From Amoebophrya sp. A120 (Eukaryota; Protista; Dinoflagellata), in the NCBI GenBank assembly GCA_905178155.1, contig CAJINV010000019.1, positions 786,988 to 850,987 on the forward strand: 64,000 nt of DNA. Direction: 5' to 3'. The position numbers and the translations under genes were made by a program. The notes under the pieces are model-generated. The model did not search any database and had not been told where the DNA came from. It worked only from the letters and a program-made list of their open reading frames with translations. Shown here one piece after another: positions 34,372 through 49,867 of the stretch (positions are counted from its first letter, which is position 1; every line of letters starts with the position of its first letter).

Positions 34372-37300
34372 CTAGTTCATCTCGGAACAGCACCCATTCG
34401 CGGTTTTTTCCGAAGCTTCCCCGATGGACAGAGTCCGCTTCATACCCGACGAAGAAGGTAATGTCGTGCAGGAGGAACCCATACCCATTTTATTCACTCC
34501 ACTACAACTCCCGCCCGTTCTGTACTTCGTGATCACCATTTCTATGGCGTCGAGCCCCCGCTTGATCTCCGGAAACGACGGCCCGTAGGACAGCCGGACG
34601 AAGCCCGAGTTATTGTGAGGAAAAATCCCCCCTCCCCATATCAAAAAGGTAAGTCGCCGAAAATTTGCAATGCTGATTTGCGACCACAAATCATCTCTGT
34701 CTTGCAAGAAGGCAACTCCACAGGCTCCGCCGCATTATGCAGGCGGTTTGTGATGCTGTTGGGCCTACAGCGCAGACGTTTCTCATGCTAAGAGCCTAGC
34801 TCAAAACCTCTCTACTCAGGCTTGGTATAGACCTGCAGTCCTCTTCAGCAAGACAAATCTGATTTGTGTACGCAAATCCAGCATCACAGACTTCGTTTTG
34901 ATGTGGGGTGGGGGGATTTTTCATTTTGATACGAGTAATTCGAGAACTTCCTGCGATGCCCGGGGTTGACGTCAAAAAACACATATCAAGTGTAAAAGTG
35001 TCGGGGTCTGGAAGAATGCAACTTGTGATGCTGCATTTGGATTCCAACAAACTCTGTATTGCATGAGTACCAAAGGAAATGCAATTTTTGCTACGCTGAG
35101 AAGGCATTTGTCATGCGGAATACGCATCAAGAAGCCCTCAAAAAATCTGTATTGCTAGGGTATGCACCACAGACATCATGGCTCATGCAAAACGTGCGTG
35201 ACAAGTGTCAGAATCTTCCAGACCCAGATATTTTTACAATTCATAACACGCCGGGGCAGACGATGACCTTCCCCTCGTTCAGCATGGTCCGGAAAAACCG
35301 CCTATCAAATGTAAAAATGTCTGGGTCGGGAAGAATGCAACTTGCCATGCTAAATCTGAAGCATGCAAAAATCTGTGTTGCATGATTACCAAAAGTCGTC
35401 CAGTTTTGACCAAGTCGGTAGGGAGTTTCTCATGCAGGATAGGCATGAGAGAGATCGCACAGAATCTGCCATGCTAGGTCCTGCATTCCAGACCTCATGG
35501 GTCATGGAAAAGCTGCATGACAGATCGCGCATTCTTCCAGACCCAGACACTTTTACATTTGATACCCCCAGCAGGTGTTCAACGGAGCCGGTAAACTCGA
35601 GATGTCGCACCAGCAGTAAAACGTCCCCTGCGGCGGGTGTTCCACCACGATGTATGGAAGTGCCAGAATCGAAATTGACAAAATCGAAAAATTTGTGATG
35701 CATAAAATGCATGACGCGGAATACGTGTGTTGCAGAGCAGGCAAGTGAGGCCGATACCGATTGTAAGCCTGTTTGGGGTTATAGCTCGAGCTGCTAAAGC
35801 AACATCATGAGAGAATCGGTCTTCTTTGCCTAAACAGCATTACAAACTGGATTTAGGCACCGCCAGAATTTGTCATGCGCCACTTAGAAACTGGGTTCAA
35901 ACTGGAATCCGTTTTATGCATGACAAATCCTTTCGATTTTGTCGCTTTCGATTCTGACACTCCCATACTATGTTCATCTCGTTTAGCCGGTGCAGGAGGA
36001 AATCCCGTTTGTTATGCATTGCAAAAGTAACGTACTAGTATAAATTGCATTACAAATTTTGGCAAAAAGAAAAGTGGGATTTGTAATGCTGTTTTACTTT
36101 AGGAGGAAGATTTGTCATGCATACTTCGACTACCGGAATTTAAGCACGGGGTCACAATTGTCTTCTTTTTGGGCTTGGTGCGCCAACCCCGCATCGCTTG
36201 CGTTTGTGCCTGTTTTTGCACCTTTTTGCGTGCCTGATTTTCCGCCTGTTTCTGTAGCTGTTTCTGTGCCTGTTTTTGCGGCTGCGCCTGTTTCAGTGCC
36301 CCCCGAGCCGCCACATTCATAGAAGAGGGCACTTTAAGTGCCAAAGTGCCCTCTTCTATGATAGTGTCTGGTAGGCACATGCATAGCACAACGCCGGGCC
36401 GTCTACAAAGCACGCTCACGCACGCAGCGCCTGCCTGCCGCAAAATGGCGCGCGGAAGGGCATCGCAAAAGATACTCCGGGGGCGCTGAATGAATCTGAC
36501 ACAGAATAGGTGCCCGGCAATCCACCTCTTCGGGCATGCCTCTACTCATCCGCCACAGGGCCTCCCAGCGCTGCAGAGCCCGCTGCGCCTTGAATTGCCG
36601 GGGTCGACTGCTGGCTCTGGGTCAGCTTCTGCAACAACTGCTCTGTCCTTTTGTTTGCACTAATCCATTGGGAGCGAAGGGCAACACTCGCACAACCGAC
36701 CACCCAACCAGCCAACTCCCCCTCTTTGTTGCTAGAAGTCCTGCTGGGCCGACATCTTACTAAAAGCAAAGAGAAAGATACCTGCTAAGAGACGGCCACT
36801 CCGTGGCGAATAAAGTTCTACAAAAATATTTGCACTTCAGAAGCATGGTCGTTCCCGATCATATCCGCCGGGGCTGGCATCCCGGCTGCTGACTTCAGCA
36901 GGCTGCTTACTTTCTGCTTCCTTTGACACGGACGAACAAGGGTGGGTTACATCTGCTTTTTTTCAAAAAGGTCTAACCCCCGCTAGTGGGTGGGCACTAG
37001 CGGGGGTTAGCTTCGGACGAATGTAACCCACCCTTGTTCATTTGTTCTAGGATGAACAAAGGTGGGTTACATTCGTCTGACCCTAACCCCCGCTAGTGCC
37101 CACCCACTAGCGGGGGTTAGAACTTTTTGGAAAACAGACAACCTAGCCCACCCTTGTTCGTCGGATCCAAATCATGGCGCTTCACATCGCCGGGTGGGCT
37201 CCGGCGATCAGAGTCGGCGAGCCTCCAAAGACATCAACTACAGAAAACATCTGCAGCGTACCACCCAGAATAAAGTGTTCCGCCATGGTATGGGGCGCGG

Positions 37301-40300
37301 ATTAATATCGCGCACCAGGCCATGCTGCAGAGCCCTACTCCCGACGGAAAACTAAAGGGCTAAGAGCGAAGTTCGCGCCCGCCATGCCGCGCGAAGGGTG
37401 AAATGGGACTGGGCACAACAAGTCACGACACAGTACCTTGAGCCAAAAGCCTCCCACTGCAACACACTTGACATCGATTTCATAATCCACAAGTCTCAAT
37501 AAGCGACGCTTCAGGTTGACATCAATGCTCTGAATGCCGAAAACCTGTCGCGCCAGATCTGCACACACTTAATTGAGACTTGTGGACTAAAAGATCAATG
37601 TGTCAAAGCTTGCGATGTCGGCATTTTGGCTCAAGGTACAATGGCGTGAGTTGCTACGCCCAATCCCTTTTCACCCCTCACGCGGATTGACAACCACAGC
37701 GACGCACCCAGGGGCCGCCCGCGTGGAGGACACGCATGCAGAAATTTTTGGCCCCCTAGGTACCACCGGATAAGTGCTTCTCTGTTCCCTCAGCACGAGC
37801 GGCTTTATCCAGCATTTTACTTCTCCATGTGATGCCGCTTTTTCGCCTTGTTTCGCGCCCTAGTTTTTCTGTTTGTGATTTTTCAAACCGAAGCAACTGC
37901 CACGACCTACTTGCGGCCGCGCTTTGCCCTTTGGTTTTTGCGCTGGAACCCGCGTCAAAAAGTAGAATTGTGACCCCGTGCGTAAATTGAGGCTTTTGAA
38001 GTATCTGCTGCAATTACTACGAGTACGATACTTTTGCACAGGATACTTGTGGCTGAAGAGCAACTGCAGGAGGATGGTTTGCTCCACGACGATATCAACT
38101 GTAAAAATGTCTGGGTCTGGAAGAATGCGCGATTTGTCATGCTGCTTTTCCATGACCCATGAGGTCTGGAATGCAGGACCTAGCATGACAGATTCTGCGA
38201 GACCTTTCGAATGCCTATCCTGCATGAGAAACTACCTCCCGACCTGGTCAAAACTGGACGACTTTTGGTAATCATGCAACACAGATTTTTGCATGCTGCA
38301 GATTTAGCATGACAAGTTGCAGTCTTCCAGACCCAGACATTTTTACATTTGATAGACGAGCTTCGGGTTCAGCAGCGGCACCAAGGCCCGTTGCGTTGGT
38401 AGAGATGGTCCCCCGTCGAGAAATATCAAATGCAAATATGTCTGGGTCGTCTGGAAGATTGCAAGACTTGTGATGCAGATCTCGATGACCCATGACGTCG
38501 GGCATGCAGGACCTAGCATGACAGATTCTGTGAGCAGACCTCTAGCATGCCTATCCTGCATGAGAAATTGCCCCTGAACTTGTCCAAAAGTGGACATCTT
38601 TTGGACATCATGCAACACAAACTTTTGGCACGATCCAGATTTAGCATGACAATCAAGCTGCAACCTTCCAGACGCCAGACATATTTGTAATGCATAAGAA
38701 AGGACCCCGCGGCCCCCACCGCTTCGATAACCTGGTATCCTGTGCAAAACTATCGTACTCGTATTGCAGTCATGCATTTACAAATCTCTCTCTTAAGGTA
38801 AATCAGCATTACAAATTTTATTTCTCATGCTAGGGAAATTTGTAATGCATTTATACGAGTACGATACTTTTGCAATGCATACCTGCCGCGGGCCGACGAT
38901 CCAGCAGACGCGCAACCCCGGCATGCGCCAGTTCTTGGTCAGACCATCGAGGAGGATCACCGGGTCACTGTTCACATCGTCCACGAACTGCGCGGCGGAA
39001 ACCATGCGCCAGTGCGCGTCGGAGGGCGCCATACGCTGCGTGTAAACATACCTGTAAATTTGTATTGCATAGCATGCATGATTATACTAGCGAAAATTTG
39101 TCATGCATGCACGTACCTGAGAAAAATTTATGTCATAATTATGCAGCTCCTTTTGTGGATTATTCATTTTGCTTGAGCAGGAGTCCGAATGCATGAACAA
39201 ATAGACGGCGCAAACATGCACACATTTCTCCTGGTCGTAGATCGATATCTGGATTGCATTTCTATTTGCAATGCAAAAAAAATGTCATAATAAATTACCT
39301 CGAATAGATCTCGTCGATAACCAGCGAGCACTGACATTCCCTTGCAATCCGGACCCAATTCTTCAATTCTTCCCCCTCGACCAACTGCCCCGTCGGGTTG
39401 CACGGATTCGAGAACAGCAACGCGCCCAACCCTTTCCCCACAATCTCCCGCCGGAGTTCCTGTAGCGTCAACCGAAAATTGTTCTCCGGATTCAACAAGA
39501 TCGGAATCGAGTTGATTTTTCCGGTCAAGGAAAATTGGGACAGCAATTCCGTGTACGCCGTGTAGTCGGGCAAAAAATGCCCGAGATTGATCTGGTCCAT
39601 GGCGGCAATTAACCGCGTCAGCGCGAGCCGCCCGCCGCCGACCAGTGCGACGTTCTCCGCTTGGTACAGCGATTGCTTCCCCTTGCGGTACATGTCATTG
39701 TAGAACTTCGCGACCGCGCGCCGGAGCGCCAAATCCCCGTTCACGTTCCCGTAGTGTAAATTTTCCGGGGTCACCTCGAGCTGTTTCAAATCCTGGTCCC
39801 ACGGGCCCTGGATGTGCTCGCTGGGGCCGAAGTTGTGGCTCGCGTTGTTGTGGAGGTGGGCTGCCGGGTTGCTGGTCTGCGCCGCGCAGGAGGGCAGTTT
39901 TCCCGCCTCGATCAATTCCTTGATTCGGTTCCGCACCGACGCCGGCCAGTGCTTCGGTAGCGACGTTTCCGGCGACCCCTGGCCCAAGTTGGCCCACTCG
40001 TGCGCGGTCTGGGCGGAATACCCGACCTTCGCGGCTTCGTCCATCACGTAGATGACGCCCGTTTTCGGGACTTGCCGGAAACCCGGGATCAACCGGTTAT
40101 TTGTCGAACTGGATTTATTCTGCGTCGGTCCGTCCAGGGTCGTGGTGGACGATTGCTGCTGTCGATCTTCCTCGTCCGAGTCCATGGCTAAATCTCGATG
40201 TTGCGACGAAGTAGATCCACTGTTGTTCTTGGTCAGACTGTTGCGCGGACCACGATCTGCTGCACCTCCGGAGGTTGACCCGCAATCGGAGGTGTTGCTG

Positions 40301-40866
40301 GTCATCAAACCGTTTTTAATATCAGCCGCGGAAGAAGAATTTGCGACTGGTTTCGGTGGTAGCGCAGCCTTTCGTCGGACCTGGTACTGTGTGGTTGTCA
40401 CTTTCGTCGTGATTCTAGTGGGGGAGACAGTACCGGAAAGAACGGAGTCATACTCTTCCTCGGGCGTTCCATTATTCTTGTTCCCGGATTGTTCCGGAGA
40501 CATGTTGACATAGTTGTTGACTTTCTGACGATTTTTGCTAAAGGTCGTCTCCACGGTTGTGCAATCGTACGACCCCGGCGCGCGAACTTCCAACTCGTCA
40601 ATCCGGTACAACACGCGCACCACCCAATCCAGATCAGAGGTGATTTGCTGCACCCGCTTGAAGTTGGCGATGACGGCGACGTCGATCCAGCCGGTACAGT
40701 CGTTCTCTTCCGACCCGTGTAGTTTCTCGCGCAGCCAGGTGTCTTTCCACAGGTTTTTGTCGCTGAAGTAATACTCGAGCTGCCGCTGCAACCGCCACTC
40801 GTCCGCAGAAAGCTGCTCCGCGGGCTTCGCGGGGGACGCGGTTGTGGTCATGTGGTCGGGGGCCAT
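34372..40866 (-). CDS. La-motif + PLP-dependent class I/II aminotransferase fusion; 10 exons
   Basis: QLEYYFSDKNL..GWIDVAVIANFKRV (La motif); NLGQGSPE, FSNPCNPTG, VIDEIYS, DGLTKNWRMPGLRVCW (PLP Lys), PQGTFYCWCD, CPGVFFD, FVRLSYG recovered in one frame after removing 8 introners and 1 GT-AG intron. Confidence 0.92.
34611..34931. mobile_element. Introner family E
   Basis: TIRs; perfect direct repeat cgagt. Confidence 0.9.
34984..35245. mobile_element. Introner family A
   Basis: TIRs; direct repeat acaca/acacg. Confidence 0.9.
35303..35564. mobile_element. Introner family A
   Basis: TIRs; direct repeat ccgcc/ccccc. Confidence 0.9.
35653..35967. mobile_element. Introner family F (TIR TATGGrAGTGyCAGAATCGAAA)
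   Basis: TIRs; direct repeat cgatg/ctatg; homologous to 57904-58208. Confidence 0.9.
36317..36361. repeat. Perfect 19-bp hairpin
   Basis: tcatagaagagggcacttt-aagtgcc-aaagtgccctcttctatga. Confidence 0.9.
36931..37162. repeat. Nested palindrome: two inverted ~110-bp arms, each itself a hairpin
   Basis: Each arm has gaacaagggtgggttac...gtaacccacccttgttc (or a close variant) around ctaacccccgctagtg-ggtggg-cactagcgggggttag. Confidence 0.9.
37401..37458 (-). ncRNA. Dinoflagellate SL RNA-like gene (diverged copy)
   Basis: agtgggaggcTTTTGGCTCAAG|GTACtgtgtcgtgacttgttgtgcccagtcccattt; 3' 12 nt of DinoSL plus GTAC donor. Confidence 0.6.
37486..37500 (-). promoter_or_regulatory. Candidate SL RNA upstream element ATTGAGACTTGTGGA
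   Basis: Identical 15-mer ending 27 nt before both SL-like exons. Confidence 0.5.
37572..37586 (+). promoter_or_regulatory. Candidate SL RNA upstream element ATTGAGACTTGTGGA
   Basis: Identical 15-mer ending 27 nt before both SL-like exons. Confidence 0.5.
37614..37671 (+). ncRNA. Dinoflagellate SL RNA-like gene
   Basis: gatgtcggCATTTTGGCTCAAG|GTACAA: 18/22 match to DCCGTAGCCATTTTGGCTCAAG, Sm-like ATTTTGG in the exon, GT donor, GGCGT/ACGCC stem, TTTT end; 58 nt. Confidence 0.75.
38093..38354. mobile_element. Introner family A (opposite orientation to 35303-35564)
   Basis: TIRs; perfect direct repeat gacga. Confidence 0.92.
38424..38696. mobile_element. Introner family A
   Basis: TIRs; perfect direct repeat agaaa. 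Confidence 0.9.
38736..38881. mobile_element. Introner family B
   Basis: TIRs; direct repeat cctgg/cctgc, which supplies canonical CAG|GT...CAG|G ends on the gene strand. Confidence 0.92.
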
Positions 40867-46538: not shown

Positions 46539-46790
46539 TATCAAATGTAAAAGTGTCTGGGTCTGGAAACTTGTGATGCTGGGTGGCGTCTCATGATGAG
46601 GCCACAAGTGCTGGCTCAACATGACAAGTTTCTGAGCTTCTAGGTGTTGCCTATTCTGCATGACAAACTGCGTTTCTGCATCACAGAAAAACTGGGCTAT
46701 TGGGTGACGTGCATGACAGATTTAAGAGTCATTCCAGACAAGCATGACAAACATGCATTCTTCCACACCCAGACACTTTTGCATTGGATA
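46539..46790. mobile_element. Family A element, duplicate of 47403-47654
   Basis: TIRs; direct repeat tcaaa. Confidence 0.9.
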
Positions 46791-46838
46791 TCAAATTCAG
46801 GTCGTCCATTTTTTCAAACCGCATCACCATTGCGTGAC

Positions 46839-46983
46839 TATGAACTGCAAAAGTATCGCACTCGTATAAATGCATTACAAATTTCCTCAGCATGAGAGAG
46901 AAAATTTGCAATGCGGATTTACCTTAAGACAAAGATTTGTAATGCATGATGGCAATACGAGTACGATACTTTTGCACAGGATA
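46839..46983. mobile_element. Family B element, duplicate of 47703-47851
   Basis: TIRs; perfect direct repeat gtgac. Confidence 0.9.
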
Positions 46984-47386: not shown

Positions 47387-49867
47387 CTACAGAAAGCTCA
47401 AATATCAAATGTAAAAGTGTCTGGGTCTGGAAACTTGTGATGCTGGGCGGCGTCTCATGATGAGGCCACAAGTGCTGGCTCAACATGACAAGTTTCTGAG
47501 CTTCTAGGTGTTGCCTATTCTGCATGACAAACTGCGTTTCTGCATCACAGAAAAACTGGGCTATTGGGTGACGTGCATGACAGATTTGAGAGTCATTCCA
47601 GACAAGCATGACAAACATGCATTCTTCCACACCCAGACACTTTTGCATTGGATATCAAATTCAGGTCGTCCATTTTTTCAAACCGCATCACCATTGCGTG
47701 ACTATGAACTGCAAATAGGTATCGCACTCGTATAAATGCATTACAAATTTCCTCAGCATGAGAGAGAAAATTTGCAATGCGGATTTACCTTAAGACAAAG
47801 ATTTGTAATGCATGATGGCAATACGAGTATCAGATACTTTTGCACAGGATACTGACTGGCCGCCGTCGATCCCTCCTGCACGGTAACTTTGATTGCCTCA
47901 TGTTGGTCCTGAACGTCAGCAGCATGTGGGCCCTGATGCGGTGCTGGTGTTCTGCTACCAGGTGGTCCGTCTGAAGATGCTCTTGCAACACTACCTAGAG
48001 CAGGACGTGGTCGAATGACATACCCGCTACCCACCGCATCTCGTAAAAACTTCAGCATTTTTGTATTTCGTTGGCCGTAGGGAACGAGAATCGCAACGTA
48101 GGCTGCAATTGGCTCACTTCTTCCAGTTGCAGCACGACTAGTTGTTCCGGTGCCGGCAACCTCCACATCTTCGTCCAGCTTCAGCAACTGCGCCCAGTTT
48201 TCCAGTAATCTTTTCGCGGATTGGTCCGACACCAGAAACCCACCGCACGTCTTCCTCCCCTGCTGGTCACAGTCGCACAGCATGTCCTGGAGAAACAGCA
48301 GGGACACTTGGTTCTCCAGCTCGGGCAGGACACAGCAGGAACTGGCGCTTCTACACTGCTCGCCTGCCGTGTTCATTACGTCAAACCGTTCTTGCGAGGA
48401 CCTCTTTTCTTCTCCTTCGCAGCTTAGGCAGAACTTTTTGTTGTCCAGAATCAAATCTAAGCTGCTTCTGCTGTATCTCTTCGTCAACCCGGTTCTGATG
48501 TGGCGGATATTGGAAGAGGGCGCAAACATCAGCTGCTCGCTCTGATTCACGTTTCCACATGGGCACAATTGTTCCATCGGCGAGAGTTGCGGGACACCGC
48601 CAACGTCCAGGAGGTAAAAGGTGGACTTTTTCTGTTTATCGTCCCCATCCTGCAACACACGATGATGATCCTGGGGACCACCACCATAATAGTGCCTCTC
48701 CACCCAACGCTGAATCCGGACCGACAGATCTTCGAAAGGACGACCGTAGTAGCCCACACTAGTATCCGTTGCTCGTTTCGCAAGCACCAAGCCGCGAGAA
48801 AAATCAGTCGCAGGCCTGACACTTTTATGCTCCTCGTCCGCTGTGCCAAGCAGGGCGTCCAGCAGGGCTGAGAGTGGATCTTGCAGTTCGGGCACCTCTT
48901 CTTGGTCCTCAGCCAAAGAAACTCTTGAAGATGGCAGCGCTGGCGGAAGGTCTGTCTCGTCCTGGTAAACAGCAGTTGCAAAAAACGGAGATATTGAAGA
49001 TTTTCCAAGTTCTTGTAGATCGTCTGTCTCACTAGATGAGTCTTCAGGAGATGAAACTTCGCGGCCAGTCTGCGTCATGCCGCAAAAAGCAGATTGCTGG
49101 ATTCTTGTTGATGAGACCACAGGACCACACTCCGCCTCTGCTTGTCGTGAAGACGAGGACGCTTTGCGCTTGTTGCCACCGCGAGTGCTGCTTCTACTTC
49201 TCTTACTACTCCTAGAACTTCTATTCGAAGTTTGCCGACAAAAGGCCGCCGCCGCCCCTAAAATCGGCGGTGCTTTTCCGTCTAAGACTTCCGAAGATGA
49301 GGCTTCGTCGCTGCTAGCGGAGGGAAGGGCGGTGGATTTCGTGAGTTTTCGCGTATCGTGGTCGGATTTGAACTCATCGTCTTCGTTGGCACTACCTTCA
49401 ACATGATCTTCCCCGAGCACATGCCACGAAGAACCAATCGCACCCGCATGTTGCGACGTCACTGAAGATGGAGTTCTAGTGGAGACCGAGCCGAAACTGC
49501 GGTGGCGCCGGAGAAAATTATCCGCGGGGGATGATGAGACACTTAGTACTTGTTCGGGTTGATATTCATGGTAGGTAGGAGCTGCGGGCACACCACGGGG
49601 CCCGATCGGCAACCATTTTGATACTTTGCTGGAGGTTGCGCTTTGCTCCTCGTCGACTTCTCGTGTTGCGGCTCCTGACCAGGGCTGTTGTTGGGCGGAC
49701 ACTGGAGGGGCAGGCATTTCTTTAGATGAGCCAGGGATTTTCGTTTGCGCTGCAGAGACCGCTCGGAAAAGAAGGCACGGGGTGGTGGTCGTGTCCCGCC
49801 TGAACGCGACGGCGATAACTGCAATGAAGGACCGTGTCGCCCGGCGAAATGTTGACATCTTGTTCAT
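47387..49867 (-). CDS. Hypothetical protein (hydrophobic N-terminus, Ser-rich region, possible SAM-methyltransferase-like domain); 3 exons ending DDLNLSFL*
   Basis: 704-codon ORF plus two short exons across introners; FYLLDVGG resembles methyltransferase motif I (weak). Confidence 0.65.
47403..47654. mobile_element. Introner family A
   Basis: TIRs; perfect direct repeat tcaaa; empty site visible at 47293-47375. Confidence 0.95.
47703..47851. mobile_element. Introner family B
   Basis: TIRs; direct repeat gtgac/ctgac; empty site visible at 47293-47375. Confidence 0.95.

Follow-up and report, generated by a model that had tools for sequence, protein, structure and literature searches.

Dinoflagellates splice a short leader RNA onto their messengers, and this leader is encoded by the spliced leader (SL) RNA gene. 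In the genomes of Amoebophrya, introners are present in many copies and have terminal inverted repeats (TIRs) with the motif TAT + 7 nt + AAA, direct repeats at their borders and non-canonical ends (PMC7789003). Introners of Amoebophrya can also be long or autonomous; these are bounded by TIRs, in some cases contain open reading frames (ORFs) and likewise act as introns (Gozashti et al., 2025, PMC12130899), and annotated introns of this genus reach 35-90 kb (PMC7789003, Table 1). Therefore, tolerance of intron length is in itself not new. In euglenids, non-conventional introns span dozens to thousands of bases (PMC11282704), and SOS splicing, which removes transposons from mRNA, depends on TIR pairing and on AKAP17A, CAAP1 and RTCB (PMC12779559). 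Here, a stretch of 64,000 nucleotides of Amoebophrya sp. A120 (contig CAJINV010000019.1, positions 786,988 to 850,987, hereafter the window) was analyzed, in which an introner of family B within an aminotransferase gene is interrupted by a 1.9-kb element with TIRs of its own.

The window contains no N. Its setting is eukaryotic, with genes almost all on the same strand and with dense short repeats with inverted ends; these ends and the short direct repeats next to them match the introner description of PMC7789003. The insert is probably a non-autonomous cut-and-paste transposon of the Pack-TIR-like type, which carries two decayed copies of the SL RNA gene and resides inside an introner that is absent, as one exact piece, from contigs of likely mRNA origin.

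A TIR element nested in a family-B introner

The B introner at 36013-38045 measures 2,033 bp with the insert and 153 bp without it, and is flanked by a 5-bp target duplication. When the insert was excised in silico, the two remaining parts aligned end to end, as one B copy, with 12 other B copies of the window. This bears out the proposal of a first-pass annotation of this DNA that a B introner is split by a second TIR element, and the nesting of the 1.9-kb element inside the B introner is real. The parts of the outer element are:

36008..36012, plus strand: left copy of the B target-site duplication, TTTGT (sequence comparison)
36013..36123, no strand: left part of the B introner with the TATGCATTGCAAAA end, ending in the target TA (alignment with B copies)
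38004..38045, no strand: right part of the B introner with the ..TTGCACAGGATA end (alignment with B copies)
38046..38050, plus strand: right copy of the B target-site duplication, CTTGT, 4/5 (sequence comparison)

The 10 intact B copies of the window that were measured have lengths of 141-171 bp, and their 5-bp target duplication is perfect in 8 and matches at 4 of 5 positions in 2, as it does in the split copy (TTTGT/CTTGT). The TIR of the split copy, which begins with TATGCATTGCAAAA, shows an inverted match of 30/37 and fits the motif TAT + 7 nt + A-run. Among the introner-like pairs found in a scan of the window, this copy is the sole clear long one.

Four contig sets were used, of which X1 and X2 are DNA-type (sample S1) and X3 and X4 RNA-type (samples S2 and S3; one study), the type being predicted. 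B is repeated in the genome, with ~190 contigs per run that continue into other flanks at each end (X1, X2). The outer element thus has the TIR motif, a direct repeat of 3-5 nt at its borders, genomic repetition and removal from mRNA, the latter seen in contigs of predicted RNA status. Elsewhere in the window, 46539-46983 and 47403-47851 form an 864-bp local duplication with an A and a B introner in each part, at the same target sites.

The best bounds of the nested element are 36124-38001 (1,878 bp, CTTC...GAAG), with TA on either side at 36122-23 and 38002-03; the bounds of 36121-38004 given before were corrected accordingly. Its features are:

36124..38001, no strand: nested non-coding TIR element flanked by TA (TIRs, no Pfam family in 15/42 frames, variant contigs in X1-X4)
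36124..36168, plus strand: left TIR, 34/45 to the right TIR, with a 16-nt identical core (TIR alignment)
36170..36300, plus strand: subterminal stretch rich in T and poor in A, with tandem units of 12/36 bp (composition, repeat scan)
36303..36375, no strand: hairpin with perfect 19-bp arms at 36317-35/36343-61 (inverted-repeat analysis)
36922..37171, no strand: nested palindrome with 120-nt arms, each with a perfect 16-bp hairpin (inverted-repeat analysis, folding)
37835..37945, plus strand: T-rich subterminal stretch, no tandem array found (composition, repeat scan)
37957..38001, minus strand: right TIR (TIR alignment)

The anatomy of the insert had largely been described correctly. TIRs of 39 bp are present but imperfect (30/39 identical, or 34/45 over the longer alignment), and only 1 of 20,000 random interior pairs attained 30/39. 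Both the perfect 19-bp hairpin and the nested palindrome could be confirmed; the arms of the latter are 86% alike, and its DNA fold has a z-score of -19.9 (0/200 shuffles). The T-rich stretches exist as well, with 40% T on the left and 38% on the right versus 21% inside the element, but they lie on the same strand with a tandem array only on the left, and are therefore not inverted repeats.

No coding frame was identified in the insert, and no Pfam family scored above the cut-off in the 15 scanned of its 42 frames of at least 40 aa. A search with Rfam gave 21 matches, all below the gathering score and to hairpin-type microRNA/sRNA models, with no SL or small nuclear RNA (snRNA) family among them, and a tRNA/tmRNA search found none.

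No other copy of the nested element is present within the 64-kb window. In X1 and X2, however, contigs along the insert, several variants that are 96-99% alike to it, differ at 1-10 positions per 128-339 nt, and X2 holds two distinct variants at 36612-36749. X3 and X4 also contain variant insert contigs. Depths of insert contigs were 80-166 in X1 and 160-234 in X2 versus ~27 and ~43 for lone B contigs, a rough excess of ~3-6x in which depth is not copy number. The insert is probably a member of a small family of repeats. When viral and metagenome contigs were searched for the TIR pattern, 0 matches were obtained.

In X3, the match begins at 36122 in two contigs whose left flanks are different, and matches end at 38003 in an X4 contig and at 38001 in an X3 contig, which favours TA as the duplicated target. 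The first TA (36122-23) is native in B copies elsewhere, and one full insertion site was seen for the TA duplication. An AT duplication with a 1,880-bp element fits the window equally well, but was rejected on the basis of the contig ends at 36122 and 38003. With TIRs, a TA target duplication, captured host sequence and no transposase match in the 15 frames scanned, the element shares these features with non-autonomous TIR transposons.

At 37002-37091 no contig cover was found in X1 and X2, and gaps also occur in X3 and X4; such gaps can be caused by palindromes or filters. In one variant contig of X3, most of the nested palindrome is missing (36979-37158, with 11 letters instead), and 33 unplaced letters lie beyond 37450. 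This position follows AG on the minus strand, and an assembly artefact, a shorter copy or a splice junction are all possible.

Host gene and removal of the enlarged intron

The host gene and the intron containing the split introner were delimited as follows:

34932..40866, minus strand: host gene with a La domain and a class I/II aminotransferase (Pfam, eight X4 joints, stop-free translation, introner scan)
36009..38046, minus strand: 2,038-nt intron comprising the B element and one copy of the 5-bp duplication, GT..AA (joint 36008->38047)

In Pfam searches, the La domain was identified with an E-value of 1.6e-17 and Aminotran_1_2 with 1.1e-13. The 3' end of the gene runs on below 34932, past another introner (34611-34931). 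At 40866-39298 on the minus strand, a long linker of low complexity connects the N-terminal La domain to the aminotransferase; this fusion is contained in one exon and apparently in a single contig of 2,953 nt.

The joint 36008->38047 was found in one X4 contig (depth 20.8) and one X3 contig (depth 614), and in none of X1 and X2. In X4, it is one of eight joints of the host gene, all at depth 20.8, and the two long listed exon pieces show 0 differences from the window. Translation over the eight joints resulted in 721 residues without a stop (...FSHK/RDFL...). The predictions that the aminotransferase frame is intact on both sides of the insertion and that a junction joins ~38046 to ~36007 therefore hold, the latter in contigs of predicted RNA type. 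Within the duplication the cut position can be shifted by 4, and no register gives an AG end. Since 2,038 equals 2,033 + 5, removal follows the same rule as for the neighbouring introners. An empty B would yield an intron of 158 nt, which corresponds to a 12.9-fold growth (2038/158), and exact removal in two RNA-type contig sets agrees with the ~13-fold tolerated increase that had been suggested. The raw RNA runs X9-X11 gave matches on introner parts only, without exon cover, and are uninformative on the host gene.

A second B introner of the host gene (38736-38881) has the opposite orientation and is also removed; here the duplication gives GT..AG ends. B is thus spliced in both orientations, and with and without canonical ends, in the RNA-type contigs.

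Folding predicts the same outer stem for B whether or not the insert is present. The idea that the TIRs of the insert are needed to hold this stem was dropped, because shuffled inserts (n=4) keep it too, with 28-33 pairs compared to 30 for the real insert; folding thus does not single out the real insert. In the simplest account, the intron would be specified by the ends of B while the middle is free, and the outer repeats may then be what removal requires. It is likely that the introner shelters the insert while the protein is unchanged. That introners can act as safe havens, as the first-pass annotation proposed, probably holds for this B copy, but it is a single case and no preference for introners is shown.

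SL RNA gene copies in the insert

The insert carries two SL-like units, and outside these 2 the 12-nt SL core has no exact match in the 64-kb window; with up to 1 mismatch allowed, 3 matches were found versus 0.71 expected. The following features were assigned:

37401..37457, minus strand: SL RNA gene copy, degenerate, with a GT donor and a damaged T-tract (matches: 3/8 in exon bases 1-8, 13/14 in bases 9-22, 25/35 to L068 in the intron)
37486..37500, minus strand: 15-nt box that precedes the minus SL unit and has the same sequence as 37572-37586 (sequence identity)
37572..37586, plus strand: second copy of the 15-nt box, possibly a promoter remnant, located 42 nt upstream of the plus unit (sequence identity)
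37614..37671, plus strand: SL RNA gene copy, degenerate, with an Sm site, a GT donor and a T-tract (matches: 3/8 in exon bases 1-8, 14/14 in bases 9-22, which include the Sm site, 27/35 to L068 in the intron)

The units are arranged head to head in an inverted duplication, the arms of which are alike at 87/120 positions and share the upstream box (15/15) and an exon-donor block (16/16). As a reference, a scan of metagenome contigs was used, which gave 132 matches in 120 loci (L001-L120), 115 with an intact exon start and 70 of these distinct. The plus unit is 83% identical to locus L068 over 54 nt (E 7.6e-8) and the minus unit 79% over 52 nt, whereas the rest of the window had no match to the 120 SL loci at E 1e-3. 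The introns of both units are nearest to one subtype (8/70 distinct intact genes), with scores of 13-19 versus a median of 7. By eye, the plus unit also fits the general SL RNA probe of PMC3101222 at 19/19 positions. The 15-nt box, allowing up to 4 substitutions, was absent within 90 nt upstream of the intact SL genes of the 120 loci. Because an SL intron and a T-tract are present, the units are, judged by sequence, copies of SL RNA genes and not relics of copied mRNAs.

An X2 contig has an intact exon start, ACCGTAGC, directly before 37622, which gives a complete 22-nt SL exon. The depth of X2 there is ~2,500-2,900 over two bins, ~60-70x that of a lone contig; the rise in X1 (1,863) is in the second bin only. 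This suggests that the deep contig is an intact multi-copy SL unit matching ~37622-37745, an extent estimated from bin depths, by which the match appears to extend ~70 nt beyond the T-tract. Judged by eye, the upstream flanks of both units resemble the 22 letters that precede the intact exon, which suggests that a whole SL gene was captured.

The joint 37686/38008, between opposite strands (depth 104 in X1, 205 in X2), places a B end directly after the point where the similarity of the SL arms stops, and another SL unit with an introner beside it is likely to exist elsewhere. Locus L101 contains two intact SL genes (187-427 and 784-1002) as a convergent inverted pair with a palindrome nearby, in a metagenome contig. 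Inverted repeats occur in 34 of the 67 SL loci of at least 1 kb, a count that has no control and was not used as evidence. Among frames near intact SL genes in the metagenome loci, no transposase family was found in the 64 scanned of 201. The loci L005, L015, L021, L046, L055, L068, L084, L086, L097 and L098 represent the distinct intron subtype nearest to the window units, and this subtype could possibly serve as a marker for related parasitic dinoflagellates.

Both units lack a complete 22-nt exon and stem I, which is formed by the exon start with the donor and is lost in the predicted folds of both. The loss is uneven, with 3/8 matches in exon bases 1-8 in each unit versus 14/14 (plus) and 13/14 (minus) in bases 9-22 (Fisher p 0.002 and 0.011). 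The Sm site, GT donor, short intron and T-tract are present in the plus unit, and the minus unit is damaged: its T-tract is broken, and 1 nt is deleted beside the Sm site. A functional SL RNA gene would be expected to yield a capped transcript of ~55-60 nt, a size of RNA that contigs do not show. A variant copy of the element carries T>C at 37624 in the Sm site. With an SL model built from 58/70 distinct intact genes, the plus unit scored 13 bits and the minus unit does not appear among the listed matches, compared to 55-66 for six intact genes of the subtype. In viral contigs, 24 matches of the SL core were found, none above 17.5 bits, and these 16-mer hits were taken as chance. The units are thus likely dead, decay being the best reading of them. 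The non-coding RNA cargo postulated by the first-pass annotation is indeed derived from SL genes, but looks degenerate.

Weighing the explanations and comparison with known systems

According to the proposed mechanism, a B introner would have entered the exon with duplication of 5 bp. Separately, a TA-duplicating TIR element would have taken up SL-gene DNA (exon, intron, terminator and some flank), which may then have been turned into an inverted pair and decayed. A transposase acting in trans would have spread the SL-bearing element to a few sites, and one copy would have inserted into the variable central part of B, at a TA located 3 nt within the predicted outer stem. Since both ends of B are intact, the route for non-canonical introns would still remove B and one copy of the duplication, leaving the protein unchanged.

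Several points weigh against this explanation. No transposase was identified in the 15 frames of the insert or in the 68 scanned of the 107 window frames of at least 125 aa. Of what the first-pass annotation suggested looking for, variant copies and a target duplication were found, but no transposase-bearing partner in the frames scanned. TA target duplications are typical of Tc1/mariner (IS630) elements; the nested element has this feature, but because no transposase was found in these frames, membership is not claimed. In PMC7789003, two putative transposases are given for one Amoebophrya strain and none for the other. Furthermore, the TIRs of the nested element are just 76-77% alike. The changes in the SL units are concentrated in exon bases 1-8, and the Sm site, donor, stem II, T-tract and 15-nt box are kept in the plus unit, a pattern not predicted by uniform neutral decay; a variant RNA, a gene truncated when it was captured, or selection acting against a functional leader could each account for it. 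Finally, the RNA-type runs come from other samples than the DNA-type runs, so that the spliced contigs could derive from an allele with an empty B; no DNA contig bridging a junction of B and insert at this locus is among the contigs listed, with 86 further joints outside the listing; and contigs cannot show splicing efficiency or retention.

The different samples and the missing bridging contig would fit a history in which B is empty in the allele or strain behind the spliced contigs, the allele with the insert being rare, unspliced or misassembled. No listed insert contig is identical to the window copy, which is also in line with this. The exact empty-site joint 36123->38004, however, is absent among the 15 joints listed, and the listed exon pieces do not differ from the window. 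The window copy is 1-7% different from its siblings and has clean TA flanks in a sequence without N, which would fit an old fixed insertion better than an artefact. This alternative is therefore considered unlikely.

There is a similarly small chance that the two units are working genes for a variant leader-type small RNA, diverging from shared boxes and spread by the transposon. Exon bases 9-22 of the plus unit are complete, its Sm site, GT donor and 6-bp intron stem are accompanied by a T-tract at the expected ~58 nt, the shared blocks are kept while the arms as a whole are not, and SL variants are known in Perkinsozoa (PMC9399869). The lost exon bases 1-8, however, are invariant in 58/58 aligned intact genes (which were selected for bases 2-8), and stem I is lost with them. 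The plus unit scores within the range of chance core matches, the minus unit is damaged at the Sm site and T-tract, another copy has a mutated Sm site, and SL-like sequences of Perkinsus without the intron gave no RNA product (PMC3101222). It is more doubtful still that a transposon family spreading a divergent SL-derived pair represents a new class of leader-like small RNA hiding in structure-spliced introners. Such an RNA would have a new 5' end and keep the Sm site, donor, stem II and terminator, in a lineage in which no U1 snRNA was found. Hardly probable is that the insert is a foldback or template-switch product of an SL region pasted into B by repair, with SL pieces as relics of reverse-transcribed RNA: its three internal palindromes, which are typical of template switching, the missing transposase and the imperfect TIRs agree with this, but the terminal repeats end exactly at TA, other copies share these ends with different flanks, an mRNA relic would lack the SL intron that both units have together with the T-tract, and an RNA copy would not carry the flank of ~70 nt seen by bin depths in the match of the deep contig.

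A Pack-TIR-like transposon with decayed SL gene copies thus remains the preferred explanation. The locus represents a natural experiment, in which a non-GT-AG introner became 13-fold longer and acquired a second TIR pair, strong hairpins and an SL-type donor, and the exact joint was kept. This points to recognition of the ends, and with two repeat pairs it becomes testable which pair is read. Small introners can likely shelter other mobile DNA without harm to the gene. The element also offers a DNA route for scattering copies of SL genes, distinct from the known route via mRNA relics. The surprise is limited, since neither long introns nor TIR elements with cargo are new and the cargo here looks dead. 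In the literature search, with most subscription papers outside its scope, no published case was found in which SL RNA genes are carried by a TIR element, or in which an Amoebophrya introner has another element inside it.

The outer element shares the motif, border repeats, ends and copy number of the Amoebophrya introners of PMC7789003, an analysis that covered introns of 40-1000 bp; the nested case of 2,038 nt lies outside this range, and the word 'nested' is absent from the text. A single complete SL coding sequence per genome is given there; the deep SL contig found here, along with decayed copies within a repeat, suggests instead that the organism has many more SL genes than one. The relic SLs of retro-copied mRNAs cited in the same paper also have a decayed SL exon, but no SL intron and terminator, which are present in both units here. 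In PMC12130899, the long element is itself the intron, whereas here a second, non-coding element rides inside a short introner; 'nested' and 'cargo' have 0 occurrences there.

With Pack-TIR or Pack-TYPE elements, including Pack-Mariner (PMC12187468), the insert shares non-autonomy, TIRs, captured host DNA and, by its variant contigs, probably several copies. Those elements are mainly known from plants and carry pieces of protein genes, in contrast to the inverted pair of SL RNA genes in the insert, for which no partner transposase is known. The dinoflagellate SL RNA gene (Zhang et al., 2011, PMC3101222) has the 3' part of the exon with the Sm site, the GT donor, an intron of ~35 nt and the T-tract in common with the units, but here bases 1-8 and stem I are broken, and the copies lie head to head in a TIR element and not in tandem or in clusters with snRNA or 5S genes. 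As in SOS splicing (Zhao et al., 2025, PMC12779559), a TIR-bounded DNA transposon with non-GT-AG ends is removed from mRNA. SOS splicing would be an established route set off by inverted repeats, but it is imprecise and was shown in animals, whereas here the same exact joint is present in both contig sets and one copy of the target duplication is removed.

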